A DNA stretch of 63,999 nucleotides, filler included, from Rozella allomycis CSF55 (GCA_000442015.1; 10 parts of 10 records of this genome joined end to end with filler, not necessarily neighbours in it), one strand, 5' to 3'. Numbered from the whole stretch's first letter, positions 4,629 to 35,014 are shown. The notes: generated by a model not told the origin, from the letters alone. A program made the numbers and translations.

Positions 4629-4708
4629 AGCTATCTCTTGGTTTCCTGCCACTGGGCTCATAACTCTCAAATTAGTAAATAAAGATAAAACTTAAGTTAA
4701 GAGTAAAG
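1..4708 (-). mobile_element. Ty1/copia LTR retrotransposon; both LTRs truncated (window edge and contig gap)
   Basis: Minus strand shows PBS GTTATGAGCCCAG (~4652-4664), gag-PR-IN-RT-RH domain order, and PPT TGAGGGGGAG (49-40) followed directly by the LTR start TGTTGG at 39. Confidence 0.95.
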
Positions 4709-4808
4709 NNNNNNNNNNNNNNNNNNNNNNNNNNNNNNNNNNNNNNNNNNNNTTAATTAATTAANNNNNNNNNNNNNNNNNNNNNNNNNNNNNNNNNNNN
4801 NNNNNNNN
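4709..4808. other. Artificial contig linker (N44-TTAATTAATTAA-N44); also at 33720, 34915, 37114, 54138, 55313, 59522, 61372 and 62874
   Basis: Identical 100-nt N-run with a six-frame-stop spacer, nine times in the window. Confidence 0.97.
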
Positions 4809-4848
4809 CGCTTGGAAGGCGAAAATTCTACCATTGAACCACGAATGC
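4809..4848 (-). tRNA. tRNA-Gly(TCC), 5' half (rest lost in the gap)
   Basis: Reverse complement GCATTCGTGGTTCAATGGTAGAATTTTCGCCTTCCAAGCG has an acceptor 5' strand, a D-arm/A-box and anticodon loop CTTCCAA closed by CGC/GCG. Confidence 0.85.
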
Positions 4849-4932
4849 GGTTGAGAAGATTATTTAGAAATCACACTTAAAAGAGACACATTTTCATATA
4901 TTGACTTGGATACAGCTAAAATCTCCGTAACA

Positions 4933-7900
4933 ATGAATCCGCCATCTAATTTGTCTCAGGATGAAGATAGAGTTGGAGTTTTAAAGCAGGCTGATTCTGT
5001 CGCTATTGATAAAGATCCTCTTGTAGGTCCTTCAAATATTCCAGAATCTAATTCGGAGTCCGCCATAAGGCATTCAAATCCAATACAATCAGACCAAGAT
5101 TCCAAAAGTACAGTTCAATCAGAGAGCAAAGACAACGACAAAGAATTGCCTACGTTTGTGTTTGTTAGTCCATCTGATCCAATTTTAGTAGATAAGACAC
5201 AATCACCATCCGCTCCTATCAAAGAACAAACAAAGCCCAACTCGATGCCGTTAAAAACAATTAAAGAAAGTTCTTCCACAATTTCTGTTGAAAATAAGGG
5301 ATTCAAAGCAGCGATCAGTCTAGATGAACTTAAAAGTGTGCCAAACAATGTTCTGTCAATTATTCCATCCTTTGTACCAACCCATGTTAGAAGATTCTTC
5401 GAGACTAAATCTAAATTACTAAATAGCGCCGTAAGTGAAGAAAAGTTTGGGGCGGTTGTAATGGCCGATGTTAGTGGCTACAGTACTTTAGCTGCTAAAT
5501 TAGCAGAAAGAGGACAAATAGGCGCTGAAATTTTGTCAAAGACTATGAACGCATTTATGGAAAAGGTATTATTTTAAATGCAATTGAAAAAGGCTGTACA
5601 AATAGTTCTTTCTCACGGTGGTGACGTTATTAAATTTGCTGGAGACGCCATAGTTCTTTGTTGGAGAACGGAAAGCGAAGACGAAAATGAAAGAGGTGAA
5701 TATGTGTTACAAGCTTGTGAATGTTGTCTTGCGTTGCTAAAAAAGTTGTCAAATTTTCCGACTAATATCCCTGATTGTGATATTACACATCTTAATGTTC
5801 ATCTTGGCGTTGGTGCCGGTCCCATGTTTGATGTTCACGTAGGAGGTCCTCCTGGGCGATGGGAACATTTTATTGCAGGCGAATCAATAAATCAGCTAGC
5901 CATTGTACTTGATTTAGCTAAGCCTGGTAATTCACTTAACAAAATTTAATTAGGGCAATTAGCAGTATCACATTTCGCACTAAAATACTTAAGTCGGGTT
6001 GTAGAAGTAGCCTCTCTTCAGCTTGGTTCATATGACAAGCGATGTATTATCTTGAATGCGTTGGAAAACAAAAAGAGAACTAGACCAAAATTAGAATTTC
6101 CAGAAGAAACACCTTTACAAGATTTCACACTAGAAAAATGCCGCCTTTACCAAAGCTATGTAAGCAATGCTGCTGTTTATCGCATACTTTCCGGAGGGAA
6201 TGATCCTCTTCTTGTCAACGAGTTCAGAAAAATAAGCACTATATTTATCAAAATTAAGTCAATTACCTTTAAAACAGAACATTGTCTACCAAACTCACAA
6301 GCCGCTATGAATGCTATTCAAACAGCTCTCTCTAAATACGAAGGAACATTGCGACAATTTATTGTAGACGATAAAGGATCTGTTATACTCTCATATTTCG
6401 GTTTACCTCCATTCGCTCATGAAAATGACCCAATGATTGCGTTGAAAGCAGCCATCGAAATCCGAAATAGATTGAAGCCAATTTTTGAGGATGGTTTTGC
6501 AATAGGAGTTGCCACTGGTATGGTTTATTGTGGCCTTATAGGCGGCGTGGAACGTGCAGACTACACAGTGACAGGTGACAGTGTGAATATGGCTGCAAGA
6601 TTAATGTCTAATTCACTGGCGAAACATGAAGTGTTGTGCGATGAAGAAACATATCAATCAAGTTTAAATTATTTAGAATTTGAAGCGATGGGGAAGATTA
6701 AAGTAAAGGGTAAAGTGCATCCAATATCTGTTTATAAACCTGTAAGGTCAAAGAAAGCATCTGTTTTGGGAGCCTCTAGTGCTTTGCCTTTACAGCAAGA
6801 AATAGATTGCGGAAGGGATAAAGAAAAAGAAGCTTTAAAAAGCGCTTTTAGTGGAATGGTTAGTGGAAAGAGGAAAATGATAGTAGTTGAAGAGCATACG
6901 AATCAAGGAATTATGGATTTAGGTAGATTCATATGTGAAGAAGCGACAAGGCATTACTTTACTATAGTGTAAATCATTTTTTGTTCTAAATATTAGCAAT
7001 GCACAAGGTACAGAAACTGAAAGAGCTACACCCTATTGGTGCTTTAAGTCGGCATTGGAAGATCTCACAAATAATTTAAAGCTTGATTCTGCAGAAAAAA
7101 GAAGATCGTCAAGTAGTTCTGAACAACTGAAGAATAATAGCAGAAGAGGCTCATCTAGTATCCCTATAGCACACACTTCAAATATTCGTAGACCATCTTT
7201 AGCAGCATTAAAGGAGAGTGAAACATCAATGCAATCCCTTTCAAACTCAAGAAAGCATTCTATTACACAAGCTAGTTATGTTGATTTTGAGAAAAAAGTT
7301 CTCGGTGGGTTGCAAGTAATGGGAATAGAAAACAAAGGAATGTCATCAATTAATTTATTTATGAATACATCAAAATCAGATACAGAACTTCGTAATGTCG
7401 TCATTGATGAGCATCCTATTTATGCACAAAAGATCAAAAAGTTTCAAGATATTGTAATACAAATGATGCTAACAGCTTCAGAAAAAGGGCCGATTTTGCT
7501 TCTGGCATCTGAATTCCACTGGGCGGATTTCTATTCTTGGGATCTCTTACATAAAATTGAGATGAGCTGTGAAAATGTGTACATTATACTTATCTCTAGA
7601 AGTCCAAAAGACTTTTTTGACTTAAAATGTGCCCAAATAGCGCAAAACATGATTAACGATAAAAGCACCTTGATTATTGAGAAGCATAAAATGAATAAAG
7701 AAGAATTAAGACAGTTAATAAAAAGGAATTGTAGCGCCGATGTTGTTGTAAATGACAAAATTGTGAACATTATCCTGAAAAGATCGGAGGGAGATGAATT
7801 ATTTGCACAGAATCTAATACAGCAATTATTGCATGAAAATAAACTAACAATTCAAGACGGAGAGCTTATTACATCTAGCAACTTCGATCTATCTGAAACA

Positions 7901-9790
7901 TTACCGGCAAATATGAAATCTATGATTACGACACAAATGGATAAATTAGATCAAACCTTTCAACTTATTCTTAGAGTCTCATCTGTTCTTGGAATGCATT
8001 TTAATCTAAATGATATCAAAAAACTTGCTAAAATTGACATAGACACTGAAGAACTAGGAAAAAGCATCTTAGATTGGGATAAGTATGGATTTCTTTTAAC
8101 CGATGAAAATGACAACAGACCTTTTAGTTACTATTTTAGGTCAAGCATGATTAAAGATTGTATTTATAGTATGATTTTATATAATCTACGCCTTGAAATA
8201 CATAAACAGATTGCTCATGACATTCAAAATCAAATGAACGATTCCAATACATCTGAGCTGCTACCTATTCTATGTTATCATTATAGTCACACTGATCTAT
8301 ACGCAGAAAGACTTGTCACACTGGAAAAAATAGCTCGATTTTCAAGTTCTGAAGGGGACTATTCTTCTGCCTTAAAATACTACGAACAATTACAAAGTTT
8401 CAGCAATTCAAAAGAGCTTACAAAAGTTTTTTGCGTGTCTCCTATTCAAAGATGTTCATGGTTTCGTGAAGAGGGTGAAGTATATATGTTATCAGGGAAC
8501 TCGGATGGTGCCATGAAAAAATTTCTTTCAAGTCTTGAAGTTATTGGAATAGAAGTCGCGGTTGGCTCTTTGAGTACTAGATTGACGAAGAAAATTGGAA
8601 AGCTGGCTACGTGCCATTGTTCTTCACCGGCTCATGAGTTGTCTGACCAACCAGAATATCATCTGGAACATTGTCTAGTGATTAAGTCAATGATATTAAA
8701 TTCTTTTTCCAGTGGTAGGGTTAAGTTAGCGAAGGATTTGATTGATCATGCCTTTACGATAAAGAGAATGGATGCAAGATTGATTGCAGTTGTTGCTTAC
8801 GTCGCAGAATCGATTCGGCAAAGTGATCAAGCGAAGAGAGCTATAGAAATCCTTGATCAAATGTTACCCACTTTGAAAACAGAATCTTTAGATATGTTAG
8901 AAACTCTTGAATATAGTACTCTGGTGAGATTTTTACAATTAAATCATACAAAATTCGAGAAAGAATCAAAAACTTTGTTGGACATGCTCTGGGGAAAAGG
9001 GTTAATAGAGAAATGGGAAAGTTTAAATCTGTTGATATCAACTGAATCTTTATTTGTAGGACAGTTATCTAGGATAGATGAATGCGCAGAAATGTTTTTG
9101 GAGAAAGGGAAACAAATACAAAATGAAGATTTTCTTAGATGGCACCAATTGCTAAAGACAGTGTTGTTAATATCTAAAGGAGAACTTCAAAAAGCAATTG
9201 AAATCTTATCAACAGTACAATATGAACTAAATAACATGGATCCGACTTTAATATCTTTACCCCAGGACCTCTTATTAGAAGCAATGCTTATGGAAGTATG
9301 CGTACGGATTCAAAAAGGCAAATATAACCTTACTCAAGGTTTAAAAAATGGTATGGAAACCATTAAGCAGATGCAAAACGTTCATTACGTAGGATTTATG
9401 CCGATGTTCTACTACGTGCGAACATTAACTTTCGTAATGCAGAATCTACCAGATCTTGTCCAATCTCACCATTCAACAATAGTTTTATCTTTAGAAACCA
9501 CAAAAAATCTGATAGAGAATCTTAAAGGATTTGCCCTTGCTACACCCATGTTTCATTTTTGTGAGGGACTTCTCGCTTTAGTTCAAAATAAAGAGGCATT
9601 AGCTCTTGATAATTTCAGTCGCGGCCTTAAGACTAGAGCTGAAATTGACCAATTGAAATATTTGGATGCCCTTTTGTACACATTTTTCATTGGAAAAGAC
9701 CACGCGAAAGTTGGAAAAAATGCGAAAGAGGAAGCGAAGAATTTATTAAAGAAAATCGGAGCAACTTATGAATCTGACTTACTGGCATAG
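4933..9790 (+). CDS. Soluble adenylyl cyclase, ADCY10/sAC-like (two class III cyclase domains, STAND-like ATPase region, helical repeats); 3 short introns
   Basis: C1 VMADVSGY and GGDVIKFAGDA; C2 FIVDDKG and YTVTGDSVNMAARLM; later EFHWAD and RSEGDELF. Introns at 5566-5592, ~5927-5953 and ~6969-6996 join the ORFs in frame. Confidence 0.88.
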
Positions 9791-9840
9791 TTAAATAAAT
9801 AATCATTTGGGTATCACTTTATTTTGTCGACTTGAGAGTA

Positions 9841-10220
9841 TCAATTTGATGGGTATTTGTAAAGAGACCGCCTTTCTATTTGTAAAAGAATATTTACCTG
9901 CAAACTCAAAAAAACTAAACTTAGCATGGATTTAAAAGTTGTTTGATTGCAAAATTCATTGTCAAGCGCACTACAGGAAAATACCTCCAAGGAATTTTCC
10001 ATTGCGCACGAAAGCAACGCTTGAGATACTATTAGGAAAACGGTAATCACGATATACTATTCTGTATTCTTTATCATGCTTACGAAAAGATAAATGTATG
10101 AGTGGAATTTTTTCCCTATCAATGGCAATGTTGTAATCACCATTGCGGACAAAATTATTTGAAGCATTATACATATATTTGACTGAAAAGCAGAAGGCAT
10201 GGAGGATTCAAGCGCGCTCC
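9841..10220 (-). CDS. Small hypothetical membrane protein (5' end uncertain)
   Basis: Hydrophobic ORF 9841-10050 joins an upstream frame through a 27-nt GT-AG intron (~10047-10073). Confidence 0.35.
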
Positions 10221-10656
10221 CATAGAATAAATAAATGATTATTGATGAGATCGATTGTTACGTCAAAGATATTTTACCAAGGAACATAAAACAGATATGT
10301 AACTGATGTGTCCAATATGACTTTGGTACAATTTCTTTACTTTTATGATTCTTTTATGCATTATCTATTTAAAAAATCATGCAATTTCTACGTGACTGAA
10401 GTGCGAAATTTGTGAACTAATTTTCGTTTGTTTCCTCGAAAATTCTGACATGAAGGAGTAATGACGATGATGTCAATAAACTTCGCGTCTGATGTTAGTT
10501 ACCATGGAAAACAGCGTACCGAAAATTGTTGCTTCTTTGATGAAGGTAGATGATAATTTCCCATAAATGTTTTTTTCTGAGATTGAATAGATGACAGCTG
10601 TTCCAGCTTTATTTAATATAAACCTTCATGTCCAATGTTATTGTCGATTGTAAACA

Positions 10657-13041
10657 ATGGCTTCCGTGAAACAATTTCACAAAATCTCACCAAGAGCGAA
10701 CGACGACTTAGATTCACAGTTGGGTCAAATTAATAAGCAGATAAAATCACTTTCCTTGGAACTCTCAGTAATGCCACTAGTTTGTTTTGAGGTTTAGACC
10801 ATGGAAAAGTCATTTAAACAGGCAGTCAACTTTAAGTGGAGTCAACTTTCTCCTTTAATCCATTTTGATCAGGAATATTCAAATCATGCTGCTGCCACAA
10901 ATGACTCCCAATTGAAGGAAAACATGATCAATATGGCGCTGTCATTGATGGCTGAATCTCATGAAAACAAGATCAAAGAAGAAAAAAATAAAGTAATTCT
11001 CATATTTTCTTTTGACAAGATCGGTAGATTGCAGGACCATCAGACGAGTGTTTTAAAGGCTGTTGAAGATAAGAAAAATGAATATAAGATCAAAAACAGT
11101 TTAATTGATGGTAAATTTTTGATTTGCCTGATTTCGGCTTGTCCTAAATTTGTATACAACCTATTTTCATCGTATGGGGATATTGTCCATGTGCACTCTA
11201 TTCAAGACAGCAAATTTCTCGTTTTCACAGGAAATGGATGCATTGGTAATAATTTATACAAATATAGAAAGAACTGTGGGAACTCATTGAAACGAAAGAC
11301 GGGAGTGGAGATATAAAAGGTAGAGAAATGGCCTTGCTGGACTTTCAGGTCCTATTTTATGATGACACTATAACGAATGTTCTTAGACTCCCGGAAATAT
11401 CAGACGTTCAGTTTACNAAAATATAGAAAGAATTGTGGGAATTCATTGAAACTAAAGACGGGAGTGGGGATATAAAAGGTACAGAAATGGCCTTACTGGA
11501 TTTCCAGGTCCTATTTTATGATGAAACTATAACGAATGTTCTTAGACTCCCGGAAATATCAGACGTTCAGTTTACAAATACTCCAAAAATTGTACTTCCT
11601 GATTCTAGCATTCCAGGTTCCCTAGATTCTCTTACGGCGAAGAAAGCAACTAAAATGAAATCCAACCTAAAATTTAACATTGAAGAGACAATTGAAGAGG
11701 AGAAAGATGGCGATAAAGATAAAGATAAAAATAGAATGGCGAGCCAAGAGAGTATGACGAACGACCCGACTCCTAACGACAGTTGCCCTTCATTTTTCTT
11801 AGGCACCAAGTCTGGAACAGGATACATATTGCAATTATCAATTGAACTGAAAGACAATAGTATAATTCTAAATGTTGATATGAAGCATACGAAGAAAGAT
11901 TTAAGTCTCAGTCCAATATTAGCTACATCATTTTTGAGACATCCATTTCCTATCATTCTCGTTGCTTGTTCTCAATATGGGATTACAAAATCTGCTGCAA
12001 CCAGTGGTTTGCAATCCGTGATTACTGGTATCGATGGTTTGAGTGGCGATATTCTTATGTTTTGGTCTTTAGCGACGCAGACTGTAGATCGTGTTGTGTC
12101 CGCCAATAAAAAGACCCGGGTCCTTGGAAAGGCAATTGTTGCGAATAAAGGACCATTGAGACTCCCAGATAAGAATAGTAAGAGATCTTTATTATGAATA
12201 CAAGTCTTGAGTGTTTATTGCGACTTTGAAAAACCACACATTTACATATCATCAAATGAAGGTGATGTTTTCAAGCTGAATGTTCACAAAAATGAAAAGG
12301 ATGCCATCTTCGACCATAATTTAAAGGTAGAAATATAGTGCGTAGAATTTAAAGAAATCATCATCCATAGTTTGGAATAAGTTTTCAGAATACGACATAT
12401 CAAGCGAGAAAATTTGCAAGGTATGTTTAATTATCAATAATTCAAAGGTGAAAGAGAAAAATTTTGATGACAATATCTTTTGTTCAAACCAAGAACAATA
12501 CCGAAGGTAGACATAGTTAACTGTTTTAACCTGTAGAAGATAAGAACAATTTGAATCCAGTCAACGTGAACAGTCTATTAGTTTTTGAAAATCACCGCAC
12601 AAATAGAAAGAACATGGCACTCGGATGTGAAGACGGCACTATTCGCATCATAAATTTGGACGATCCACAAAACGAGTCATTCAGCACTGATTACACAGCC
12701 AGTTCATGTGGTCCAACTTATCTGTCAAGTATGGTGGTTAAAAAGACAACACTTGTGATATCAATCAATGGAAATGGTAATTATTTTGTTTGGACTTGAA
12801 AGGTTTAATGCAGATTACTGCGCCTGAGAAGAGAATGGTGTTATACGACATTAACACCCTTCTGAACCGCCAGTCAATTGCCGATCAAGAGTCGGAGGAA
12901 AAAGGATCTAAAAGACGCTCATTGCATAAATCTATTCATATCTTAAGCCTCAAACCGCCGACGATAGCGGTAACTGTAGGCAATGAATGGTCGATTGTTT
13001 CTCTAGAAAAGCTACAAGAATGGCTCAAAAACTCTTCATAA
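10657..13041 (+). CDS. Multi-exon hypothetical protein with N-terminal coiled coil and WD40-like beta repeats
   Basis: Chain of ORFs linked by ~27-30 nt introns; WD-like LGCEDGTIRIINL. Assembly duplication around N 11417. Confidence 0.55.
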
Positions 13042-13122
13042 CTCTATAAACACCAAAAACTAAAATTTCTTTATGATCGATTTACAAATTTTATTGTGAT
13101 TTAATGCAATTATTTTTAATCA

Positions 13123-13933
13123 TTATTCTTCATTCTTCCCTTCTAATTCCAATTTCATTTGCTCCGCCAATTTTTTCGTCAGCCTCTTCCCTCTCTTCTT
13201 TTTACACTCTTCCTCCCCCTCATTCTTCTTCTTCTTACACGACAGCGGATTCGGATTCCCCGGCACTTTCCTCTTCACTCCGACCTTCTCCACCTTCTTC
13301 TTCACATTCAATTCCTTCTCCAACCTCCTAATCTGCATCCTATCATGCTCCGTCAGTCCCGTCTTCTCTCTCGCAATCTATCCACCTTTTCACAACCTCG
13401 TACCTGGTCAATCCTCCTCATCGTCGTCTCCGACACAGGCTCCAAAATAAACGCCGCCTTATTATAATACACCAGCGGCACCGCCGGCAACTCCCTCAGC
13501 ACCCGCCTCAACGCCCGATCCTGCGTCGCCACCGTATACCGATTCTCATTGCGCTCGCCTATCCCACCAACCAAACACACTTACCAATCAAATGCTTGAT
13601 ACACTCACAAGCCGATAACACGCCCTCGTGCTGGCACTTGCGAATTTCGAAGCGACGCGCTGCAGCGGCCGATGCACCGAACCCCTCGCCCAGCGCCTTG
13701 AGCTCGGTGATTATGCAGTCGGTGACTATCAGCTTGCATTCCTCCTGCAAAAGTTTAGGGAGCGCTTCTCTGAGGATGATCTTGTTTTGGACCGCGTGGT
13801 GGATCAGATTGCCGTCGACTGGGTAAAGGAGTGTATAGTTGTTACCGATCACTTGGAATGGCTGGTAGAATCCAAACGTGTGGATATATACGGACATTTG
13901 CTTTTTTGTGCGTTTCGTTCGTTTTGATTTCAT
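13123..13933 (-). CDS. UTP23: rRNA-processing PIN-domain protein Utp23
   Basis: MKSKRTKR..FGFYQPFQV..DGN, VTDCIITEL, YTVATQD and PGNPNPLSCKKKK; three short introns. Confidence 0.9.
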
Positions 13934-14075
13934 TAGTGCCCAAGCCACACAGTTTTGACGATTCTATTTAAATGACTAATGTATCAAGAATAACAATGAA
14001 AAAAAATTAAAATATCTTATATGATTATATCCAACTACAACTTTTATAATATCTCACATAAAAGTTTAATCCAAT

Positions 14076-17000
14076 TTATTTAAATACTGTATACTTCCCT
14101 GCCCACTGCACAACAGCGCCCAACACATCCATCTGATAAACCTCGGCCACAGATTTCAGCACCCTAACTCTTCTCATCACAACCTCTTCTTTCAAGCTAT
14201 TCGCAAAACTGCCGCTGCACTGGCAATGATCAGTCAAATTAGTATTCGCGACCATCCTGCACTTGCCACACACTAAATCCTGCACCTGATAATTCTTCAA
14301 CAAATCGTAAAACTGCATGACGAGAGTTTGCTGGATGAGCTGCTTGTCGAACAAATGCGCACAAGCTGCGCACGCAAAGTCGGTGTCCCTGCAGATGTCG
14401 AGATCGCTGATACTGTTGCAGGATGCGCAGAACATGTTTGGCAGGATGAGCGACTCTGAGGGGTTCGTGAAGACGGTTGATGGATCGAATTCTTTGATTG
14501 AGAGGAGCGTTAGGAGGTGTCTTCTGAGTAGGAGGACGAGATGCTTGAGATCTGCTTCGAGAGCGAATATGGCGCAGATTGATTTGATGAATTCCAACGG
14601 CCCGTATTTGAGATCGAGATGTGAGCCTGGCAAAGTTGGAAAGAGACACGAGTCGTCGTCGTGGTGGGCGAACTTTGTTTGCATTTCGCGGACGATTGAG
14701 AGGATTGATGAATTGAATTTTTCGAAAAACTCTTTTTGGTTTCTGAATAGACCTATGATTGTGAGGGGATGTGGGGGTACCTGAAGATTCGTAGAGATCC
14801 GATTCAGAGAACATTTGGTTGCTTGAGTGGGATGATTCAGAAGGAGGCAATCTGTTTTCTCTAGTGTCGTCGATGCAAGAGTAAATGTAGGTGATGAATT
14901 CAGCAACTGTTTGATGGAAAGTGTTTTGAATTGCAGGAGGTAAAAAGTTTTGAATGTGCCAATTCATTACCAGTTGAGAATTTAAAGAGTTTACAGAATC
15001 CAACTGTTGAGAGTGTTGATAATCAAAGTCTATTGAATCTAATTCAATTATTTCTACTATAGTTACCAATGTCAGTAATGTAACCAGCATAATTATTTTT
15101 ATCCAACCAAAGCAAATAATTGTAATATTTTACAATTCTAAATTCAATCCAACAAAACAAATCTTTTGAATTTGTTTCTTTTAAAAGGAAATCAACAAAG
15201 GGGATAGCATTGAAGATTGATTGTTTTGATGTTTGTAGAATAATCTTGTTAAAGTTTGCAAAGATGATTTTGACACCAAGTGATTTGAATTCATTTAATA
15301 GTTGAATGAATAGTTTGTTCATTAGTTGATTAATGTGATTGAACATTAGAGGATCGTATAGTTTGCTGCTTGGAGATTTAATCCAACGATAGAAATTAGC
15401 CAGAAGAGAATCAGCTTCATAGTTTCCAAATCTAGCTACATCTTGAGACCAAGAGAGCACAAGATTTTTCAAAGCCAAAAAGTGGTCTTTATTTAAAGTA
15501 TTTTCATTCAACAAATTCAAAGCCTTAGACAAATGATGCGCACGAGTAGCACTAGTAGTAGCATTAGTTTGAGTGGTAGTTTGGGTTGAACTAGATATCC
15601 CTTTACTCTCAATCCCTTTACTCTCAATCCCTTTACTCTCAATGCCATTAACACTTCCACCTTTACTCTCAATCCCTTTACTGCTTTCAATCCCTTTACT
15701 ACCTTCACCAACTCCTATACTATCGTCACCCTTTGATTCAATGATAGTGTTGATGCACAGATTAGCAACATTTAACTCCACACAAATAGATTTAAAAGAC
15801 CCAGAAACAGACACATCAAAAGAATTATCAACAAAATTAAAATGATTATCAAATTCCCTTCCACTCAAATCAGGAGACTCATTTTCAGAATACCACAAGA
15901 GAAACCCCTGTTGTTTTAAACATCTAGCGTATAAAACATCACTTGAGAGAATAGAAATATCGCCCTTTAGATTACCAATTGGAATTTTAGAATATTTTGA
16001 TAATTCTAATAAAGATTCAAACCAACTATTTAATTCAAAATATCTTTTAATGAATTTAGTTAGAATTAATTGATTCCAATCCAATGATCTTATTTGTTTA
16101 AAGTTGAATGGAATGTTTATTATTGGACCCTCTAAATTCAACATTGAAGAAATTCTTTCATTTTTATTAACAAAACTTTCAAGAATTATTAAATCTTGTT
16201 TATTAGCTAGAAATTTATTAAGTAATCTAGTTAATTCTTTTAAATTTGAAACTGAATGAATTTCATAGATTGGATTTGCTGAATAAATAAAAAATTCATT
16301 TAAATAATCTTTTTCTTTTGATTCAAATTTGATGTAATTTTCATTGTAAATCTTTTTCACTAAATTTATTGAAATTGTTGCATTTATAAAACAAATAAAT
16401 ATTTTATTATTCAAAACACATCCAACAAATCTCTTTTTATCTATAAATGAATCAAACAAGAAGCAAAAATTTATTCCATCCAACCCACTCAAATACGAGG
16501 GGGTTAAACTCATACTAGTATTAGTATTAGTTTTAATGATGACTGTCGATTCAAGTTGATTGAGATTCAATACATTCAACAAATTATTTCTAATCTTACA
16601 TTTATTACCAATCTGCATGATAATCTTAAAATCCAATGGAACATTCAACTCATACACTCCAATAACACTCGGATGATTAAACAACACTTGCAACTCTCTC
16701 TGCTTCAACTCAAACTCTTTCTCTGTCATTTCCACTTGATACAAATTCACAACTGAATGGTTTCTAGGCAATTTATATTCAACTCTTTTAATCTCTTTAA
16801 CATCAACTCTATCTACCCTTAAATCTTCAGAGTTCAATTCAAACAATGAATTAATATAAAACACTCTAGGAACACAAACAAGAACACTCTTTATTTGATT
16901 ATTAATCAATGAAATTATTTTATATTCTCCCTTGTTAAATGTTTCTACTATTTGGATAATCTCCCATTCATTCTTTTTAAATATCTCATTCTGCTTATCA

Positions 17001-20000
17001 AACAAACTTTTCTTTTCATTCTTCTTTTTATTATTCCATCTCTTTTTCATCCCTTCTATCCATTTACTAAAATCATTAAACATCAACGACACTGGTGGGC
17101 ATTTATTCACTGTTAATTTAGCAGTTGATTTATTAGTTGAAAGATTAGAAGATTTATTAAGTTTATTTCTTGGTTTGATCAAACTACTTTCATCCTTTAT
17201 TTCTAATTCTCTCATCTTTTCTTTCAATTCATCTTCAACTTTACCCAAATCTTCAATATCAACTTCTATTTCTCCCCTCTCTTCAACCTCCAACTCATCA
17301 ACCCCCAACTCTTCCACCTCATCATCTTTAACCTTGTAATACTCTTTAATACTCTTCTGCTTCCTACTCCACTTCCTCTCCCTAATCCTCCTCTCCAGCC
17401 ACTCTGGATGCCTAATCCTCGGCACAGGATTCTCCACATTCTGCATCGCTGCAGGTATAGTAATAATCTTCTGAATAGCAGACGCCAACCTCTCAATATA
17501 ATACTCCCAATCAAGCAAACTCCTAATATCAAAATCTTCAATCAATGGATCCTTCAACCACTTGCGCAAATAAAAATGCTTCACACTCTCCTCGGTAGAA
17601 AATATCGCTATTGGTATCGCTCGATCAGTAACCGCACTGCCAACTGGCTTGCTACAAATAACAAACTGACACGCCAACCCCTTGTCCTTTATCATGTCTG
17701 AGCCTAGAAACTCTGCTAGCCTTTTCGCTGTTGAAATGGATGTCGACTTGCCAGCATACTCTTCAACTGATCTGCTCATACTCTTCTTTTCCGAAATCAA
17801 ATCAAACAACTCTTCATCAGTCAGCTTTTCGCCCTTGGAATACAATATATTCAACCAATGGTTAGCTACCACAGACACACTCTCATAACACTCCTTCAAA
17901 TTGCTTCCCTTTAAAAAATTATTAAAAATCTCNACCCTTGGAATACAATATATTCAACCAATGGTTAGCCACAACAGACACACTTTCATAACACTCCTTC
18001 AAATTGCTTCCCTTTAAAAAATTATTAAAAATCTCTGATTGGAAATACTTTATCAACTTCAACTCTCCCCTCCTCTTCACTTCAAACCCCTTCAATTCTG
18101 CCAACGTATCATCTTGCATACACTCATAAACAACTACTTACCTTTATTAAACACTGCATATCTCTTCTTCAACAATTTATCCTGCTCTTTAGACGCCGGC
18201 AGTATCATAGCTTTATACGGCCCATCAATCTCAAAAAATATTGAATTTTCACTCTTCCTCTTATACTCTCCACTCTCAACATCCAAATCTTCATATTGAT
18301 CATTCGTAAACTTATCATACACCAAATAATTCAACATCACACACGGATACGATATCACAATCTCTTTGCCATTCTTCAACCTAAACTTGAAATTCTCTGG
18401 AAACCTCTCTGGCAATATACACCATATCCCATCAGTATCCAACTCCAACGGCCTTCCTATCATTTCAATCAACTCGCGCGCCATCCTAATAATCATCGCT
18501 CCAGTATGACACACAATCCCTATCTCAATATCACAACAAATCATATACCTGCCATCTCCATCGAATACCATCTCGCTCCCTTCCTCATCACATACCCATA
18601 AAACGAATTCAAAATACACTTGTGCGCCAGCTGCAGCGAATCATACAATATAATCATCTTCTTGCTCTCCTCAACCCTTCCCAAATCACCCTGCTTGACA
18701 GCCTCTTCCATCTCCTTTTTCCATTTCTTATGCAGCCCCTTATACTCATACCGTCTGTCCCTAAAACATTTCACAGTATCAACATAAAACGGATTCTCCC
18801 GCTGACACACAATACTCGTCTTCTTCACAATCTCATGCTCATGGTTCTTCCGATACACCTTCCTGCAATACTGCCCCAACCGCTTCTCAATCAGATTCTG
18901 CTGCTCATTCTTGCTCAGCTCGTAAAAACTCTTATTGTCAAACTTTTCACTCTCCAACTGGTTCTTGATCATCCTATACTCGTTCTTCCGCGCAGGCATA
19001 TACTCGCCACGCCAGTCCCACTCCATCCTCCTCTGACACGTCTTGCCAGGCTTATTAAAATCACAAGACGCACACATCTTCTCATCCACGATCGCTGGAG
19101 GCTGCAGCCGATTAGTCAGGATAATGTTCGGATACATCGCTGCTACATCCAAATGGTAAATCAAAGGACATTCTACACTCTCACTCCTAGCCTCCAGCTC
19201 TTCCAATCTCCTCTTTATATCCTCATACACCTCTGCATAATTCTCAACTTGCTCAAAATCAATCTTCATCTCCACCCTCAACGCAAACTTCAACGCATCA
19301 TCCAGCTCATTAATCAATCTTCTAAACGCCTTTGGATTCATCTTAAATTCAGTCTCAATATCAGATCTAAACACTCCACTCTCNCGACGCACACATCTTC
19401 TCATCCACGATCGCAGGAGGCTGCAGCCGATTAGTCAAAATAATGTTCGGATACATCGCTGCTACATCCAAATGGTAAATCAAAGGACATTCTACACTCT
19501 CACTCCTAGCCTCCAGCTCTTCCAATCTCCTCTTTATATCCTCATACACCTCTGCATAATTCTCAACTTGCTCAAAATCAATCTTCATCTCCACCCTCAA
19601 CGCAAACTTCAACGCTTCATCAAGCTCATTAATCAACCTTCTAAAAGCTTTCGGATTCATCTTAAATTCAGTCTCAATATCAGATCTAAACACTCCACTC
19701 TCCAAAGCCTCCACATGTCCACCAACATACGTCTCATTCTCCAACAAATGACCCTTGTAAAACTTTCCTCTAGTTTCAACATGTCTATTAGGCATCAAAA
19801 CATTCGCTTTAAACGATTCAACCATCAGCAACGTCTCACACAACGTTCCAGATCCTTTCCTCAAAACCTCATCAGGGTTCAATGGGATTATATTGCAGAG
19901 CGAAAAGATAAACGGATGCACATACTTCATGTACAGATAATACGTCGCAACTGCATCAGAAACTGAATACGTCGCCAACACTTGTGGCTTCTCGCGTGCA

Positions 20001-22279
20001 AACGGTGTCATATCTTCAGGATCCAGTTCCATAGGATTATATCCAAGCTTTGCACTCGTTACAGCCTCATTTAATTAAATTCATCTTGTTACCTTTAAAC
20101 CGTGGCTTCCTACTGGTAAATATGAATCTCTCTTTACCCATCTAAAACAATCCATATGAATACAATATGTTGATTTATATTCATCACTTGAATCCTTTTG
20201 AAATCCAATCATCTTTTCTCTAATTCATTGTTATCTTACTTCAAACATTGACATTCCATTTATTTTTGCTCTTTCTTCCACGNACCAATCATCTTTTCTA
20301 TTATTCATTGTGATCTTACTTCAAACATTGACATTCCATTTATTTTTGCTCTTTCTTCCACGAATGGCCAATCGAAAGAATCACCATTGTATGTTGCTAT
20401 AACTGTAGGTCTCACTTGCTGAATATGTTCAAAAAACCTTTCAAGTAAACATTTCTATATCTTTAAACTAATTCTGATACCTCATTCTCTTCATTAAATA
20501 TTATAAATGGACCTTCAAATTCTGGTNCCCAAGCTTTGCACTCGTTACAGCCTCTTTTAATAAAATTAATGCTGTTACCTTTAAACCGTGACTTCCTACT
20601 GGTAAATATGAATCTCTCTTTACCCATCTAAAACAATCCATGTGAATACAATATGTTGATTTATATTCATCACTTGAATCCTTTTGAAAACCAATCATCT
20701 TTTCTATTATTCATTGTGATCTTACTTCAAACATTGACATTCCATTTATTTTTGCTCTTTCTTCCACGAATGGCCAATCGAAAGAATCACCATTGTATGT
20801 TGCTATAACTGTAGGTCTCACTTGCTGAATATGTTCAAAAAACCTTTCAAGTAAACATTTCTATATCTTCAAACTACTCTTAATACCTCATTCTCTTCAT
20901 TAAATATTATAAATGGACCTTCAAATTCTGGTTTGGGTGTATATTCAAAATCTTCAATGTCTTCAGATATAATATCTCTGTTGGTAATCAAATATCCCTT
21001 TCATTAACATAATTTGTATCTACTTGTCCATCAATCATATAAGAAATCATCATTATTGAATCAATTTGTGCATCTGGAAATTTTAATGGTAATTTAGTTG
21101 TTTCAATATCAAACGCCATCACAACAGGATCAGCTCTAACCTTCCATTAAACCATCTAAAATCTCTCACCTGCTTTTCCAAATCTCTTTCCAACTTTATA
21201 TTTCCATTAATTGCTTTNACCCTTAAACCATCTCAAATCTCTTACCTGCTTTTCCAAATCTCTTTCCAACTTTATATTTCCATTAATTGCTTTGGCTGTA
21301 TACCAATACCCAATTCTAATATCATGATCAATTGAAACTCTCAAATGATACGAAATATCATGCTCTCTCAACTCTATAACACTCTCCAACCCTCCATTCA
21401 TGGCATAATTCACTTTATTCTCCACAACATCTTCCATCGGATCAATACTAACCAGCTCATTCCCTCCACCGCCTCCTTCAAACCTCTCACTAGACATCAT
21501 CCTCTCCTTATTCTGTTCAGCCGCAGGCATCAGCACCTTCCTCACAGATATCAAATCAGCCGTATTCCTAAACACAAGCTTCACAACCCTCTGCTTCTCA
21601 CTCACCAAATGATTCGCCTATCATTGCCATCCAACAATCTTACCAGCGCCAAATCCTCCTTTTCCCCAATCTCAATCCTCTCCACAATACTCCCAAACTT
21701 TCTCTTCACAAACTCTTCAAACTCAACCTGCATCCCCTTCTAAACACCACCATAAATCCCACGTACCTTTGTCACCACATAAAAATACGGAGACTCCACA
21801 AAAGTCGCCTTGAAACTACCACCATCCTCCTGCAAAAAATACAAATCAACCGCAGACCGTCCGCCAGCCCAACTGTCGTCCTTGACAAGCGTCGAATGCA
21901 TATTCACCAACCATCCATACTTGGACACCCCCTCAGTATACCTACAATACAGCTGATTTACATATGTACCGGTCAAATCCCATCGATTGGTCAATCGTGT
22001 CCAGCTTGCGGATCTCNCCCATACTTGGACACCCCCTCAGTATACCTACACTACAGCTGGTTTACATACATACCGGTCAAATCCCATCGATTGGTCAATC
22101 GTGTCCAGCTTGCGGATCTCGTCGAATCGCTCATGCAGACTCGCTAGATCAACACTCGGCGTGAATTCGTCCACTTGAGACGCTGGTGTTTTCTCAGAAC
22201 GCACTTTTTTCGTAGAGACTGAATGGCCTGACGCAAAGTTGCGGCGTTTTCCAAACTTTGACCGTTTTTGATAGGTCAT
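14076..22279 (-). CDS. POL2: DNA polymerase epsilon catalytic subunit (many introns; 5' half broken by haplotype duplications)
   Basis: Exonuclease [16 protein letters not shown]; polymerase [31 protein letters not shown] and ELDTDGIW; C-terminal CysA/CysB (CASC..CAAC, CGKC..CQC). Confidence 0.97.
15596..15710. repeat. 15-nt tandem repeat (CCTTTACTCTCAATC) encoding an SKGIE insertion in Pol2
   Basis: About five copies visible; protein reads [33 protein letters not shown]. Confidence 0.85.
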
Positions 22280-22548
22280 TTGGGAATTTTCAGGGTACCG
22301 GGAATTGTGTGGTTATTTGGCAATTGAAGAATGACTTTTGATTAGAGTACATTAGGAGGTAATTGTAAAAATGGAATTAGTTGAGATTCGAGTAATTACA
22401 GCAAATCGCAAGAATGTTTGCGTTGTACAATTTGTATAGATTATCATTGGAAGTTAATGTTATTCTCTCCGTAGTTTTTTATCTTAGAGTTAATAAGTTA
22501 TCATTTCCTTGCCCTTTTAACACAATGACATTGTGAAATCAGAATTTC

Positions 22549-23405
22549 ATGAATTTGGAATTTCAACTTGAAAAGTTACTCGACCGCAGCGAAAAATTAA
22601 TAGAAGATGGAGCCCTTGAAGACGAAATCCATCGCCAAAAATTTAATCATGTACCCCATCCCATCCAAAAATATGTAGTATCACAAAACGATGAAAGAAA
22701 TGCTGGCAAATATAGAAGCCCAGCAAATGGACAACAACGAGTCACAAGGTAATCGTATATACTTGCAATTTAAATGAATCAAAGTTGCACCACAAGGCGA
22801 GGCTGCATGAATTGTCACGACGAGTGATGAGATTTGCGTCATTTTTGGAGACAGACGAGAGTGTATGTGTTTATTTGTAGTATTAATCAGAAATTGGGCA
22901 GGCCATTGTCGCTTGCATCGATACCGTCGGGATCAATGTCGGGATTGACGAGACAGGCGAGTATCCAGCTGATGGTAAAGAATAAAACTGGCAAATCGAC
23001 TTTGAGTGAATTGATGGGTGTTTCTGAATCTGGCACGCGGAATAGAAACATAGTGTCGGATGTGCCAAGCGACCAGTTGGTGCGCGAAGAAAACTTGCAT
23101 GAGGATATGACTGGTGAAATGCTGAAAATGGTGGAAATATTGAAATCCAATGCCAAGGCTGTCGAAAAAATTTTGGAGACCGATGAAAGAGTATGATGTA
23201 CGAGATTTTTTAGAGTAAGGTTATGAATGAGGGCCAACATCTTTTGGGTGATAATTTGAACAGATTAGTGGGTGAATCGAAAAGACTAAAGTTATTTAGC
23301 AGCCAGAGTGGACGCACAACATTGGCTATTTGGATTCTTTTGTTTTTTGTGTGCATGCTTTTTGTATTAGCGTTTATGATGATCCGAGTGTTTCCAAAGC
23401 AATAA
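22549..23405 (+). CDS. USE1: ER SNARE Use1-like tail-anchored protein
   Basis: SNARE-like coiled coil HEDMTGEMLKMVEILKSNA and C-terminal TM ending IRVFPK; about four short introns. Confidence 0.7.
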
Positions 23406-23501
23406 ATAATTTAAATATGATTAAACATGCATTAATTGAATTATTTTTATCTATTTTCATTTTTGAATTAATTGAATGAAATTTGCACCCTTGTTTGAGT
23501 A

Positions 23502-26353
23502 ATGTCGAAAAGAAGACTGCAAGGTGAATCACCCGACGGCAGTGACAGGGAGGTGGAGAGAGAAGATACCCCACCTCCATTTTCGAGTGATGATGAGGAG
23601 GAAGAGATAGTGGAAGAGGTTGTGCAAAATGAGGAAGAGGAAGGCGAGGATCTTTTTGGCGACGACATGTTGCGGTAAGATAAGATAAAGGGTGTAAAAA
23701 GGGATTACCAAGAAATGCCTCGTTTGGACCGCTACGATGGACGCATGGTGGATGATGCTGAATATGAGGATATGGATGATGCTGAGAGAAGGATGATTGA
23801 TCAAATGCTGAATAGAAGAGATAGAGAGCAGGCTGTGTTGGAGGGAAGACTGCCGGAAGCGTTTTTGAGTGATGATATGGAGGAAGGGCCTGGATTGACT
23901 CAATTTGGGAAATTTAGGTTTGGAAGAGACGATGGAACTGATTTAATGGAAGCTGAAGATGCGGTAAATAGGATTAAAGGGTGTTAATAGGCTGCTGTTG
24001 CATTGACTGATGCGGAATCAGCGAATTATTCGTTGCAAGAGTTTGTGATGATGGAGAACTATAGAAGAAGAATAGCATATGATTATAGAACATTTTTAAC
24101 CACGTATTTGAATGAGGAAGGAGCTCCAGTGTATAATCAAAAGATCAGAGCTATGTGTGCAGGTAAATGTGCTTTGTGAATATCAATATAGCTAATTTGG
24201 AGAGTTTAGAAGTGAGTTATAATCATTTAGCTGATTCTAATGCATTTTTAGCAAAATTGTTGGCGAATGTACCAGGGGAGATATTGAAGATCTTTGATGA
24301 GACGACGATGAGTATAGTTTTAGAACAATTTGAAGATTATGGAAGAATCCAAAATGAGATTCATGTTAGAATAATTGATTATCCTACAGTTGATAGATTG
24401 TGTGATTTAAGAAATAATCATTTGAATGCCATGATAAGAGTTAGTGGAGTTGTGACTAGAAGAACTGGAGTGTTTCCTCACATGAAGTTGGTTAAATTTG
24501 ATTGTTCTAAATGTGGGAAAGAATTGGGACCCTTTACACAAGATTTGAATTCAGAATTTAAAGTTTCAAGTTGTAATAATTGTGATTCAAAAGGTCCATT
24601 TACTGTGAATACTCAAAAAGTAACAAAATAGATTTTAATTGATAAAGACAATTTATGAAAATTATCAAAAGGTGACTTTACAAGAGAGTCCAGGGACTGT
24701 TAGTGCAGGAAGACTTCCAAGACACAAAGAAGTTGTGTTGTTAGCTGATTTAATTGACTGTGCAAGACCAGGAGAAGAAATTGAAGTTACTGGGATTTAT
24801 AAAAACAACTTTTCTATTGCAATGAATAATAAACATGGGTTTCCTGTATTTGAAACCATTATTGAAGCTAACTATGTTTGTAAGAAACAAGACTTGTTTG
24901 CATCAACGCGTTTGACTGAAGATGATCAACAAGAAATAAGAAAATTATCATCAGATCCCAACATTGGTCAACGAATAATAAAATCTATCGCACCTTCAAT
25001 TTATGGCCATGAAAATATTAAAACTGCGATTGCTTTATCAATGTTTGGTGGTCAACCTAAAAATATTCAAAACAAGCACAGAGTTCGTGGTGATATAAAT
25101 GTTTTACTATTGGGAGATCCTGGTAATCAAATTTAATTGTTTTGATCAAAGGAACTGCAAAATCTCAATTTTTAAAATATATTGAGAAAACTGCTCATAG
25201 GGCTGTTTATACAACTGGGCAGGGTGCGTCAGCTGTTGGTTTAACTGCTTCTGTTCATAAAGACCCTGTCACTAAAGAATGGACATTGGAAGGCGGTGCT
25301 TTAGTTTTAGCTGACAATGGAATTTGTTTAATTGATGAGTTTGATAAAATGAATGACACTGACAGAACAAGTATTCACGAAGCCATGGAACAACAATCCA
25401 TTTCCATTTCAAAAGCTGGTATTGTTACTACCCTTCAAGCACGCTGTGCAATCATTGCTGCTGCCAATCCAATTCGCGGTAGATACAACCCTTCAATCCC
25501 ATTCAATCAAAACGTTGAATTAACTGAACCCATTCTATCTAGATTTGATGTCCTCTGTGTCGTTAAAGACAACGTTGATCCTGTCACTGATGAAGCTTTG
25601 GCTAAATTTGTTGTTTCTTCTCACATGAAATCCCATCCTGATTTTGATCCTCAAGACATTGGTGAATTCATTCGCGACTTTCAAGGTCTTCGCGCCTCTT
25701 TTGATGAACAATATCTCTTAACTCAAGACCAATTAAAGAAATACGTACTATACGCTAAATCACATTGCCATCCAAAGATTAGTGACGTTGATAGCACCAA
25801 AATTGCTAAATTATACGCTGATCTCAGAAAGGAATCTCTAAACAATGGGGGTATTCCAATCACTGTTCGTCATTTGGAATCTATCGTTAGATTAGCTGAA
25901 GCGCACGCTAGAATGCATCTACGAGACACCGTTCGCGCTGATGACGTTGATTTAGCCATTAGAGTCATGTTGGAGAGTTTTATTTCATCCCAGAAATATT
26001 CAGTCATGAAACAATTGAAGAAAGTAATCATTTTATTTCTGATTCAATTAGGGATTTGCCAAATACGTCACTTATCGTAGAGATCATTATGAATTGTTAT
26101 TGTTTTTGGTTCAAGAAAGCTTGCGTGAAACTTTACGTTACTATCACTACAGATTTGGTGACGATAACATGCCGCCAGTTGCTGAAATAGAAGCTGAAGA
26201 TTTTGAAAGCAAAGTACTTAATTAACTTCATTGTAACGTTAGGCTAAAGAATTGGGTATCAATGACGTCCAATCATTCTATTCCTCTAAATTGTTCACTG
26301 GAAATGGATTTAGATACAATCCAACAAGCCATCAAATTGAAAAAGATATTTAA
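23502..26353 (+). CDS. MCM2: DNA replication licensing factor Mcm2
   Basis: Acidic N-terminus [13 protein letters not shown], zinc finger CSKC..CNNC, GDPGTAKSQ, IDEFDKM and SRFD; about seven 27-29 nt introns. Confidence 0.97.
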
Positions 26354-26423
26354 TAAATAAATTGTTTTAAAACGGCCAATCTGTTCATTTGCTCTGATTT
26401 GAGAAATTTTGCAATTGTCAAAA

Positions 26424-27230
26424 ATGAATGGAAAATATGAACCACTCGTAGATGTGCCAATTACAAATGCAGAAACTGCTAATTCTCCCAAATCCAAACT
26501 ACCAGGTTTCGGTCCCACCGACATTCCTTCAACCTCCTCCAATCAAAAACAAACTCCAATAGCACCACGTCTCAGCACACTTGATGAGCCAGTTTCAGCA
26601 ACTCTAGTACTAAAATCCACCCTCTAAAATAGAAACGCGATTTATTCGCCATCTGGAAAAAGATTACAGTAGTCCTCATTCCAAGAGGCTCAGAGAACAT
26701 CCTAAAAGACTGTAACGACCTTACTATTTCCAAAACCAGGGGATCTATGGGGCCCATTGCTGCTATGTCTCATGCTCGCAACGTAAAAGTTTCATGAATT
26801 ATTTACAGGACAATGAGCGTCGCAGCGGCATCGTCGCAGAAAACGGAATACGTCTTTACACTTGTATTCGTCATTGTATGGATCGGATCGGCAATCGTTA
26901 CGGTGAATGCGTCGCTGCTCGGCGGCAAAATGTAAGATGCTGCTTGTATTATTAAAGATCGTTTTTTCAGAGCGTTTGCGCGCTGGGATACTGCCTGTTT
27001 CCACTGAATGTGGCATCTTTGGTCGCAGCGTTTGTAGGAACGATCATTGTTAGAGGGCCGGTGGCATTGGCATCACTCTTTTGGTCAGTCACGGGTAAAT
27101 TGTTGAGATGGCTATGTTAGCGTCTATAAAGTTTTTGGGCGAGACTAATTTAAATAATAGAAAGATATTGGCGGTTTATCCATTGTTCCTGTTTTATTTT
27201 ATCCTGTCGTGGTTAATTTTGATATCTTAG
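26424..27230 (+). CDS. Yip1-domain Golgi protein (YIPF6/Yip4-like)
   Basis: Spliced translation STLDEPVSATLKRDL..LKDWDLWGPLLLCL..GYCLFPL..LAVYPLFLFYF. Confidence 0.85.
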
Positions 27231-27548
27231 TGTAATGATTTAATAAATTGTTGTTCTTTATTGATAATTTGATTGCAACTTGCAATCGGCGACTTTTTCA
27301 TGGTGGTTAGGTGGTATTTATGAGAATAAGACTCTTGAAGATGTTGAACAATACGGTCTTTAATCTTTCTATCTTGAAGCTAACCCTTTTTCCTTCTATT
27401 TGCGTCGTTTGAACCTTACTCTTGAAAAGATGAACCGGCCCTATGCTTTAGAAGATTCAAGAAAAGAATTAACGCATAAATAGGTTAACATAGCTTATCA
27501 GCTCCAATTTAAATTTCGTGCAATACTGATAACCAAAGCCACAAAAGC

Positions 27549-33719: not shown

Positions 33720-34049
33720 NNNNNNNNNNNNNNNNNNNNNNNNNNNNNNNNNNNNNNNNNNNNTTAATTAATTAANNNNNNNNNNNNNNNNNNNNNNNNN
33801 NNNNNNNNNNNNNNNNNNNAAAAAAATGACATGCAATACGTTAAATATTTCAAAGAATTTTGTGCGACTACCAGTGTGCGCTATTAACTTTAGTGTCGTT
33901 GAAAATCTCGAACAAAAGGTATTAATTATAGGAACAAACTACATGTAAATCGGTTATAAATCTTTACTCAAGGATTGTCTAAAATATTAAGTACCTATTA
34001 TCAATTGCTACCTGAACTAAAAAAAGAAAATCTCCGCATTGTCTCGCTG

Positions 34050-34889: not shown

Positions 34890-35014
34890 ATAATTAATAA
34901 ATTGATGTTACAAANNNNNNNNNNNNNNNNNNNNNNNNNNNNNNNNNNNNNNNNNNNNTTAATTAATTAANNNNNNNNNNNNNNNNNNNNNNNNNNNNNN
35001 NNNNNNNNNNNNNN

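Follow-up and report, generated by a model that had tools for sequence, protein, structure and literature searches.

Strong and patchy G/C strand-skew blocks that mostly follow gene sense in a contig of Rozella allomycis CSF55

The stretch of DNA analysed here, a 64-kilobase (kb) window from Rozella allomycis CSF55 (GCA_000442015.1) in which at least 10 contigs are chained, carries within one of these contigs (4809-33719) a succession of blocks in which one strand is strongly enriched in G and the other in C. The blocks lie over the genes of a UTP23-like protein, the catalytic subunit of DNA polymerase epsilon (POL2), a USE1-like protein, MCM2 and a YIPF6-like protein. Our verdict is that the region represents a very strong, patchy variant of the known transcription-linked skew. 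We put at about even the chances that the blocks are the footprint of a strand-asymmetric bias bound to transcription units and not to fixed genomic positions.

The alternation of C-rich and G-rich blocks on the + strand, described in an earlier note on this DNA, is real. The profile in windows of 120 nucleotides (nt), in which the signs of the skew refer to the + strand unless stated, shows C-to-G crossings at about 13720, 14350, 22230, 22770 and 26800 and G-to-C crossings at about 13930, 15400-15580, 22500, 25340 and 27350. The switch points listed earlier agree with this profile, and the G-to-C crossings near 22500 and 27350 are additional to them. In windows of 200 nt, an absolute skew above 0.5 is found in 24% of the windows at 13000-27300, in 0% at 1-13000 and in 1.6% at 27300-64000. 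The skew reaches up to 0.8 between 13 and 25 kb (17651-19900, for example, holds 223 G and 702 C), and the hand counts made earlier within POL2 were reproduced exactly on recounting (24 C and 9 G in 14101-14160, 24 G and 5 C in 14461-14520). The blocks over UTP23 and POL2 and in the spacer next to USE1 are as follows.

13060-13720, + strand C-rich, skew -0.35 to -0.83: the G-rich sense strand of the UTP23 body
13720-13930, short arm, + strand G-rich, +0.23 to +0.31: the C-rich sense 5' end of UTP23
13960-14350, + strand C-rich, -0.14 to -0.60: the G-rich sense strand of POL2 over its last ~280 nt and ~100 nt past the stop codon
14350 to ~15400-15580, reversed block, + strand G-rich, +0.31 to +0.53: the C-rich sense strand of POL2
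15580-22230, main block, + strand C-rich, mostly -0.3 to -0.7: the G/T-rich, C-poor sense strand of POL2
22280-22548, divergent spacer between POL2 and USE1, + strand G-rich, +0.28 to +0.57

The run at 13001-13700 contains 84 G and 247 C, and that at 14351-15050 contains 206 G and 101 C. The skew of the main POL2 block comes near zero only in the very AT-rich segment 15950-16400, and a short dip at 15040-15159 has a G+C content (GC) of only 0.23. Read in the sense direction, UTP23 is mildly C-rich over its first ~210 nt and strongly G-rich thereafter up to its stop codon. In USE1 a slight C excess (-0.2) covers ~200 nt at the start and gives way to a G-rich sense strand at ~22770. The sense strand of MCM2 is G-rich from the start to ~24900 (+0.3 to +0.69), weakly C-rich at 25340-25820 (-0.17 to -0.32) and neutral elsewhere past ~24900. 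YIPF6 is C-rich in sense over the first ~380 nt (-0.23 to -0.54) and then G-rich to ~150 nt past the stop codon. The seemingly single G-rich domain over USE1 and MCM2 consists of two gene-body blocks, which an almost neutral spacer separates. Local GC peaks of 0.44-0.58 coincide with the C-to-G switches, as had been claimed. The CpG richness claimed for the same points (14 CpG in 13600-13719) is partly trivial and largely a by-product, C and G being both frequent only there.

The bias resides at silent sites. The silent-site figures refer to third codon positions as a whole, and antisense shadow open reading frames (ORFs) were excluded from them. At the third positions of the POL2 exon 19385-20074, the frequencies of G, C, A and T (G3, C3, A3 and T3) are 0.41, 0.05, 0.17 and 0.37, respectively, with a third-position skew (skew3) of +0.79. 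The corresponding frequencies in the ordinary ORFs of the window are ~0.16, ~0.14, ~0.35 and ~0.35 (C3 and G3 ranging over ~0.12-0.19), with a skew3 within ~+/-0.2. Codon choice flips within the last exon of POL2, the two halves of which use opposite synonymous codons. By hand count, leucine is encoded in the first 143 codons of this exon by CTC 14 times, CTA three times, CTG once and TTG twice, and in its last 81 codons by TTG six times, TTA once, CTC twice and CTG once. Codons of the reversed POL2 block end in C or A.

The introns follow the same rule. Of the 26 introns whose bases were counted by hand, 18 are within strong blocks, and every one of these agrees with its block, as had been noticed earlier; the other eight, in weak or neutral zones, show little bias, with MCM2 intron 6 slightly opposing its zone. 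The seven introns of the main POL2 block are G/T-rich and hold 8 C and 57 G in total, and MCM2 introns 1 and 2 have no C at all. The intron of the reversed POL2 block (14753-14780), which is required to connect two open frames, is C/A-rich, with 13 C and 2 G. A further intron, proposed in USE1 at 22651-22678 and described as C-rich, is plausible but unproven, the models of the USE1 5' part being ambiguous. Since both third positions and introns carry the bias, amino-acid composition, or protein coding in general, is ruled out as the source of the skew, and a reasonable reading is that the DNA, or the RNA precursor, is subject to a strand-specific bias.

The skew is not a general property of POL2 sequences. 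Comparison of the POL2 catalytic exon with metagenome contigs gave 476 stretches, 451 of them relatives (the best 68% identical), and three of 80 loci were used as controls: the POL2 orthologues on these three unrelated metagenome contigs have a skew within +/-0.23 in 1-kb windows. The DNA of a close relative was also sought in metagenome contigs with the POL2 C-terminus, which gave 295 pattern matches and no relative.

A bias acting on RNA could be selective, with cytosine avoided in transcripts (scarce cytidine triphosphate, no G-C pairing) and a C-rich 5' end tuning elongation. The introns and the first ~100 nt of the 3' untranslated regions, which share the bias, are parts of the primary transcript, and a strand nearly without G or C cannot form G-C pairs with itself. 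An adaptive hypothesis is already in print for the pattern of fungal genes, as excerpted from PMC3315797. However, the POL2 messenger RNA (mRNA) is C-rich and G-poor over 1.2 kb, C predominates over the initial 380 nt of the YIPF6 mRNA, two introns included, and the neighbouring genes are not C-poor. A C3 of 0.05 over 6 kb of a gene that is not expected to be highly expressed would also be hard to credit to selection. Selection on RNA is thus considered unlikely.

The polarity of the blocks was compared with the following features of the region.

13123-13933, - strand, UTP23-like gene (Fcf1/PIN family), three exons, introns 13559-13584 and 13378-13403 (26 nt each)
13934-14075, AT-rich spacer between the POL2 stop and the UTP23 start, GC 0.18-0.29, carrying a G-to-C switch
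14076-22279, - strand, POL2, DNA polymerase epsilon catalytic subunit, with Pfam POL2_thumb, DUF1744 and zf-DPOE (both zinc-finger modules); a rough model
15597-15700, in-frame tandem repeat of POL2 (15-nt unit, 6.7 copies), where the reversed block has its G-to-C boundary
22549-23405, + strand, USE1-like gene, with Pfam Use1 (E 2.1e-5, under the curated cut-off) on one exon of 100 amino acids
23502-26353, + strand, MCM2, eight exons and seven introns of 27-29 nt
26424-27230, + strand, putative YIPF6-like gene, six exons and five introns of 26-28 nt, the name being the label used in the earlier note

Strong runs, defined as at least 350 nt with an absolute skew above 0.3, number 15 in the whole window and lie on eight genes of four contigs, POL2 accounting for eight of the runs. 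The other genes with strong runs are a copia-type retrotransposon ORF, UTP23, USE1, MCM2, a repeat-rich ORF (41202-42461), an acidic ORF (53304-54137) and a probable + strand gene (56781-57300). The sense strand of the underlying ORF is the G-rich one in 14 of these 15 runs, the sole exception being the POL2 run at 14351-15050; for the run at 56901-57400, the assignment of sense rests on ORFs without a family match. The earlier statement that the blocks alternate regardless of gene strand is not confirmed. Of the companion statement that neither protein coding nor transcription direction explains the blocks, the first part is borne out by the third positions and introns, whereas the second is not supported, given a polarity that mostly tracks the genes.

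The blocks are also limited by the genes. At UTP23, POL2 and YIPF6 they run 60-150 nt past the stop codon before they cease (~60-100 nt at UTP23), and the skew is at most about +0.15 in three of the four spacers (13900-14019, 23340-23519 and 26240-26479), the intergenic spacers of the region being only 70-270 nt long. Four of the five C-to-G switches are located 80-400 nt downstream of a start codon, with the sense strand C-rich before the switch and G-rich after it; in POL2 the C-rich part is the upstream spacer. Counting this spacer, the sense strand is C-rich at the 5' end of four of the five genes (UTP23, USE1, YIPF6 and POL2), and it is G-rich toward the 3' end in four of the five (UTP23, POL2 over its last 280 nt, USE1 and YIPF6). 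The + strand gene at 56781-57300, on another contig, has a similar profile, with a neutral 5' part followed by a skew of up to +0.8. The strongest skew of the whole window, +0.81 at 57050-57349, falls in the 3' part of this probable small gene. Since unicellular fungi have the same gene profile (PMC3315797), the switches within genes are a known kind of feature and not evidence for position-fixed sites. The palindrome ATTTAAAT, which is present in several spacers, is not enriched in the window (13 occurrences against 8.4 expected, a count reached in 7 of 100 shuffles).

These relations bear on the model of the earlier note, that of fixed bidirectional origins or nick/break sites. Placed at the C-to-G switches, such sites would expose the lagging-strand template to single-strand damage, and G-rich strands would lead outward from each. 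The C-to-G polarity is that of bacterial origins and of the asymmetry at human CpG islands, as given in the accessible text of PMC2817419. The switches are GC-rich, as such a model would have it, and the reversed block within POL2 shows that gene sense is not the whole story. However, the polarity matches gene sense in all strong runs but one, the switches lie in GC-rich coding DNA and the AT-rich spacers hold the opposite switch, the blocks end at the gene ends, and most of the window, the rest of the same contig included, is without such domains. The model would also have to fit five switches, some with arms of no more than 200-370 nt, into 13.2 kb, which is implausible; to our knowledge, such spacing is far below any origin spacing of nuclear genomes. 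Placing origins or breaks at the switches is thus very unlikely to be correct, and fixed initiation or nick sites every few kb are highly improbable.

The composition of the blocks constrains the type of base change. The GC is 0.39-0.58 in the skewed blocks and 0.19-0.31 in the unskewed parts of the same gene. Between ordinary third positions and those of the main POL2 block, G rises from ~0.16 to 0.41 and A falls from ~0.35 to 0.17, so that an A-to-G component is needed. C deamination alone, which had been proposed as an example of such a process, and repeat-induced point mutation are ruled out by the higher GC of the skewed blocks. The signs of a kataegis-like process or of repeat-induced point mutation are missing also in that G3 is 0.41 and the frames of single-copy essential genes are intact. 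GC-biased gene conversion alone is rejected as strand-symmetric, whereas C is lost here.

In the favoured explanation, a transcription-bound bias would push the sense (non-template) strand in the bodies of some genes to G and T at every weakly constrained site (introns, third codon positions and ~100 nt directly past the stop codon), until C is nearly gone. Relative to the ordinary genes of the window, the sense strand would thereby have received an excess of A-to-G plus C-to-T changes, as would be expected where one strand is more single-stranded or less repaired than the other (transcription bubbles, R-loops, transcription-coupled repair). The G and T preferences go together in POL2 and MCM2 exons, where the third-position AT skew is -0.15 to -0.38 at a GC skew of +0.47 to +0.79. 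At the 5' end or promoter the polarity would be reversed, with a C-rich sense strand, which would place the C-to-G switch 80-400 nt inside the gene. Antisense transcripts from downstream promoters of the same strand would leave the reversed 3' blocks in POL2 and, more weakly, in MCM2. A more specific form of this explanation, in which a transcription-coupled process, probably via R-loops, damages the displaced strand by A-to-G and C-to-T changes at a strength otherwise seen only in organelles and so rewrites codon usage in kilobase blocks, is put forward only tentatively.

Several observations weigh against a bias bound to transcription units. The divergent spacer between POL2 and USE1 stays skewed, with a + strand that is G-rich throughout and hence asymmetric. 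In MCM2 the 5' end is not C-rich, and the skew is lost midway through the gene. The effect is patchy: it singles out POL2, UTP23, USE1 and half of MCM2, whereas the skew is ordinary in the genes that the same contig carries at 5-12 kb and 27-33 kb. The AT skew at third positions is -0.21 to -0.38 in the main POL2 block, where G goes with T, opposite to the correlation reported for unicellular fungi (PMC3315797). Among variants between runs and between duplicated copies, which are few and unpolarised, no strand bias is evident: pyrimidine transitions are somewhat commoner than purine transitions in both types of block. Concerning the reversed blocks, one lies upstream of the second promoter in two of the three same-strand gene pairs, and the USE1-MCM2 pair is without it; the third positions of the weakly reversed MCM2 exon still hold more T than A, so that the reversal is no clean mirror image.

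The reversed block of POL2 begins ~280 nt upstream of the stop codon and extends to ~1500 nt before it. UTP23, which follows on the same strand, has its start codon ~420 nt from this point of beginning. The + strand read from the UTP23 spacer is C-rich for ~300 nt and then G-rich, like a gene profile. Upstream of the YIPF6 promoter, the 3' third of MCM2 shows a weaker reversal (exon 25127-26077 has a third-position skew of -0.34). Because each of the two reversed blocks adjoins the promoter of the next gene on the same strand, antisense transcription is suggested, and the blocks may be the footprints of divergent antisense transcription from these promoters. The spacer at 13934-14075 is presumed to be the UTP23 promoter by its position. 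In yeast, antisense non-coding starts just upstream of a poly(A) site tend to co-occur with the coding start of the next gene ~200 nt away, an arrangement which, as far as the excerpted text of PMC7618759 describes it, is like that proposed here for POL2 and UTP23. The ORF at 14311-14781 on the + strand of the reversed block has no family match in Pfam, the only database searched with it, and looks like a shadow frame.

Breaks provide another account of the same block. In the standard model, 5'-to-3' resection of a break leaves the 3'-ending strand single-stranded. Single-strand damage at promoter- or repeat-centred breaks, atop a gene-body skew, would act on these exposed strands. After their deamination (A-to-G, C-to-T), G would prevail on the + strand left of the break and C right of it, with a G-to-C switch at the break itself. 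Such damage would account for the short inverted promoter arms and, with a break at the 15-nt repeat, also for the 1.2-kb reversed block. G-to-C switches with arms of 200-400 nt are indeed present at three of the four AT-rich promoter spacers (13930, 22500 and 26400, the last weak on its left), and the other G-to-C boundary of the reversed block is at the repeat 15597-15700. A contig of one sequencing run (X2) skips 86 nt at this repeat, which suggests that its copy number varies between runs. However, the 6.6-kb POL2 block and the sense-strand rule of 14 in 15 runs are not accounted for by breaks, the skew is flat along the blocks with no decay with distance from the presumed break, and the MCM2 promoter is without such a switch. 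Although the far boundary of the reversed block at a variable repeat keeps the break-centred alternative alive, it is not a probable one.

If a transcription-coupled process damages the displaced strand in this way, the skew map would be a fossil record of sense and antisense transcription, readable from the DNA alone in an organism represented here by amplified, single-cell-like data, and an unannotated antisense RNA of ~1.2-1.5 kb would be predicted over the 3' end of POL2. If they record the exposed strand, base composition alone could map transcription units in unculturable organisms. The region would further show how far a neutral strand bias can reach over codon usage, and even amino-acid choice, in a nuclear genome. 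Gene finders, codon-usage measures and substitution models rest on assumptions that such blocks violate.

The sequence that carries the blocks is authentic. Contigs of four runs from four studies contain it with few letters different, one independent contig covers 13874-15626 with 1 difference and bridges two switches, and an open reading frame crosses every switch. Since the frames are open and independent contigs bridge the switches, inversions and chimeras are ruled out as the cause of the skew; misassembled inversions, which the earlier note had named as a possible refutation, were not seen. The very uneven read depth between runs, a 3.2-kb internal skip in one run and unmerged tandem duplicates at single N positions in the assembly might otherwise raise the suspicion of an artefact, for example inverted chimeras or deamination damage, that arose in single-cell amplification, in sequencing or in assembly. 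With the four runs in agreement across the switches, and with duplicates that only repeat skewed sequence, this alternative is close to refuted already and its probability is minimal. The internal skip is that of a contig of run X6, which joins 15296 directly to 18539 and misses 3242 nt inside POL2. The other runs are intact there, and the junction probably reflects either a deletion in the cell concerned or a chimera formed during amplification.

The window holds 13 single N positions, 11 of which are flanked by tandem copies of 67-404 nt that differ by 1.5-6%. The flanks of the other two, at 57819 and 61936, were checked and have no such copies.

11417, 17933, 19384, 20283, 20527, 21218, 22017, 31509, 32224, 35716 and 60461: single N with flanking tandem copies

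Six of the duplicated joins are within POL2. A contig of run X1 bypasses four of the duplicated joins exactly (17830 to 17934, 19120 to 19440, 20232 to 20719 and 21167 to 21244). Because this independent contig skips the four joins exactly, the duplicates are unmerged variants, allelic or between cells, which inflate POL2 by ~1.1 kb and give false repeats in its protein. They merely copy sequence that is already skewed and did not create the skew pattern. Nine linkers of 100 bases join the contigs of the window; in each, a 12-letter motif that puts stops into all six frames is flanked by 44 N on either side. Adjacency across a linker is meaningless in this window.

4709-4808, 33720-33819, 34915-35014, 37114-37213, 54138-54237, 55313-55412, 59522-59621, 61372-61471 and 62874-62973: linkers

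Long open frames of 125-297 codons run antisense to the skewed genes, since stop codons are scarce on a strand that is short of G or C. Gene calling from ORFs would be misled by them.

13332-13823, 18493-19383 and 21572-22015, + strand: antisense shadow ORFs
22890-23264, 23377-23913 and 56935-57345, - strand: antisense shadow ORFs

As to the genes themselves, exon 1 of the UTP23-like gene matches Pfam Fcf1 (E 1.2e-11). In the 5' part of USE1 (22549-22800), no exon-intron path exists with GTA...AG introns alone and the alternatives are ambiguous; the anomaly may be an assembly frameshift or an unusual intron. Early-diverging fungi supply the best named matches of the MCM2 core, with 70-74% identity, and plants and red algae come a few points lower. 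These matches hint at a fungal lineage, for which a comparison with fungi would be apt. Structured RNAs and transfer RNAs were searched for across the window, and none were found. The copia-type retrotransposon ORF (3-4691, - strand) comprises 1563 uninterrupted codons and fills the first contig. It has Pfam gag-pre-integrase, integrase core, RVT_2 and other matches, and its sense strand is rich in A and G. The + strand ORFs at 55695-56483 (262 codons) and 58168-59259 (363 codons) are nearly identical to each other in an N-terminal, signal-like stretch and in a C-terminal one. They have no Pfam family, and it appears that an unknown protein has been duplicated locally.

No report of nuclear-genome skew blocks of such strength was found in the open-access literature searched, and the comparison is with weaker or more distant systems. 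Mammalian transcription-associated asymmetry consists of a G+T excess of a few percent on the sense strand of introns. The blocks resemble it in that G exceeds C and T exceeds A on the sense strand at neutral sites, implying A-to-G over T-to-C plus C-to-T changes, and they may likewise be confined to transcribed DNA. However, the excess is 60-80% at silent sites here, and the reversed 5' segment is not mammalian. The heavy-strand asymmetry of animal mitochondria is attributed to A-to-G and C-to-T deamination of the strand that is single-stranded in replication. Its amplitude is comparable, with G+T against A+C at silent sites and a rewritten codon usage, but the present DNA is nuclear with spliceosomal introns, and its polarity changes every few hundred to few thousand bases.

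In replication-linked skew, that of bacterial replichores and of the surroundings of human CpG islands (the latter as treated in the accessible text of PMC2817419), G/T-rich strands likewise diverge from the C-to-G switch. The domains there measure tens of kb to megabases, whereas here they measure hundreds of bases to a few kb and their polarity follows the genes. At CpG-island promoters and terminators, a tie of GC skew to R-loops and antisense transcripts has been proposed, with inverted peaks at bidirectional promoters (PMC3882496, in the excerpted text). The G-rich non-template strand is common to both. However, the sense strand in mammals becomes G-rich right after the start site, whereas here the first 80-400 nt are C-rich and whole gene bodies are G-rich; counted from the start codons, the sense strand of this first segment is C-rich or neutral in four of the five genes.

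The closest resemblance in layout is to unicellular fungi, in which, according to the excerpted account of McLean and Tirosh, the coding strand shows a C bias at promoters and gene 5' ends, whereas the bulk of the gene, with its 3' end, has a G bias (PMC3315797). The fungal skew is seen at fourfold sites, in promoters and in untranslated regions, and concerns many but not all genes (PMC3315797). The 5' C-bias, the 3' G-bias past the stop codon and the presence at silent and non-coding sites are alike in both. However, the amplitude is far larger here in some genes (skew3 up to +0.79, C3 0.05), with ordinary genes as neighbours, and the switches are abrupt rather than gradual, with a 1.2-kb fully reversed block inside one gene. 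The GC skew and the AT skew show a positive correlation in fungi (PMC3315797), whereas G goes with T in the main POL2 block. The 5'/3' skew of fungal genes has several competing explanations, and a lineage in which the effect is several-fold stronger would be a good place to test them.

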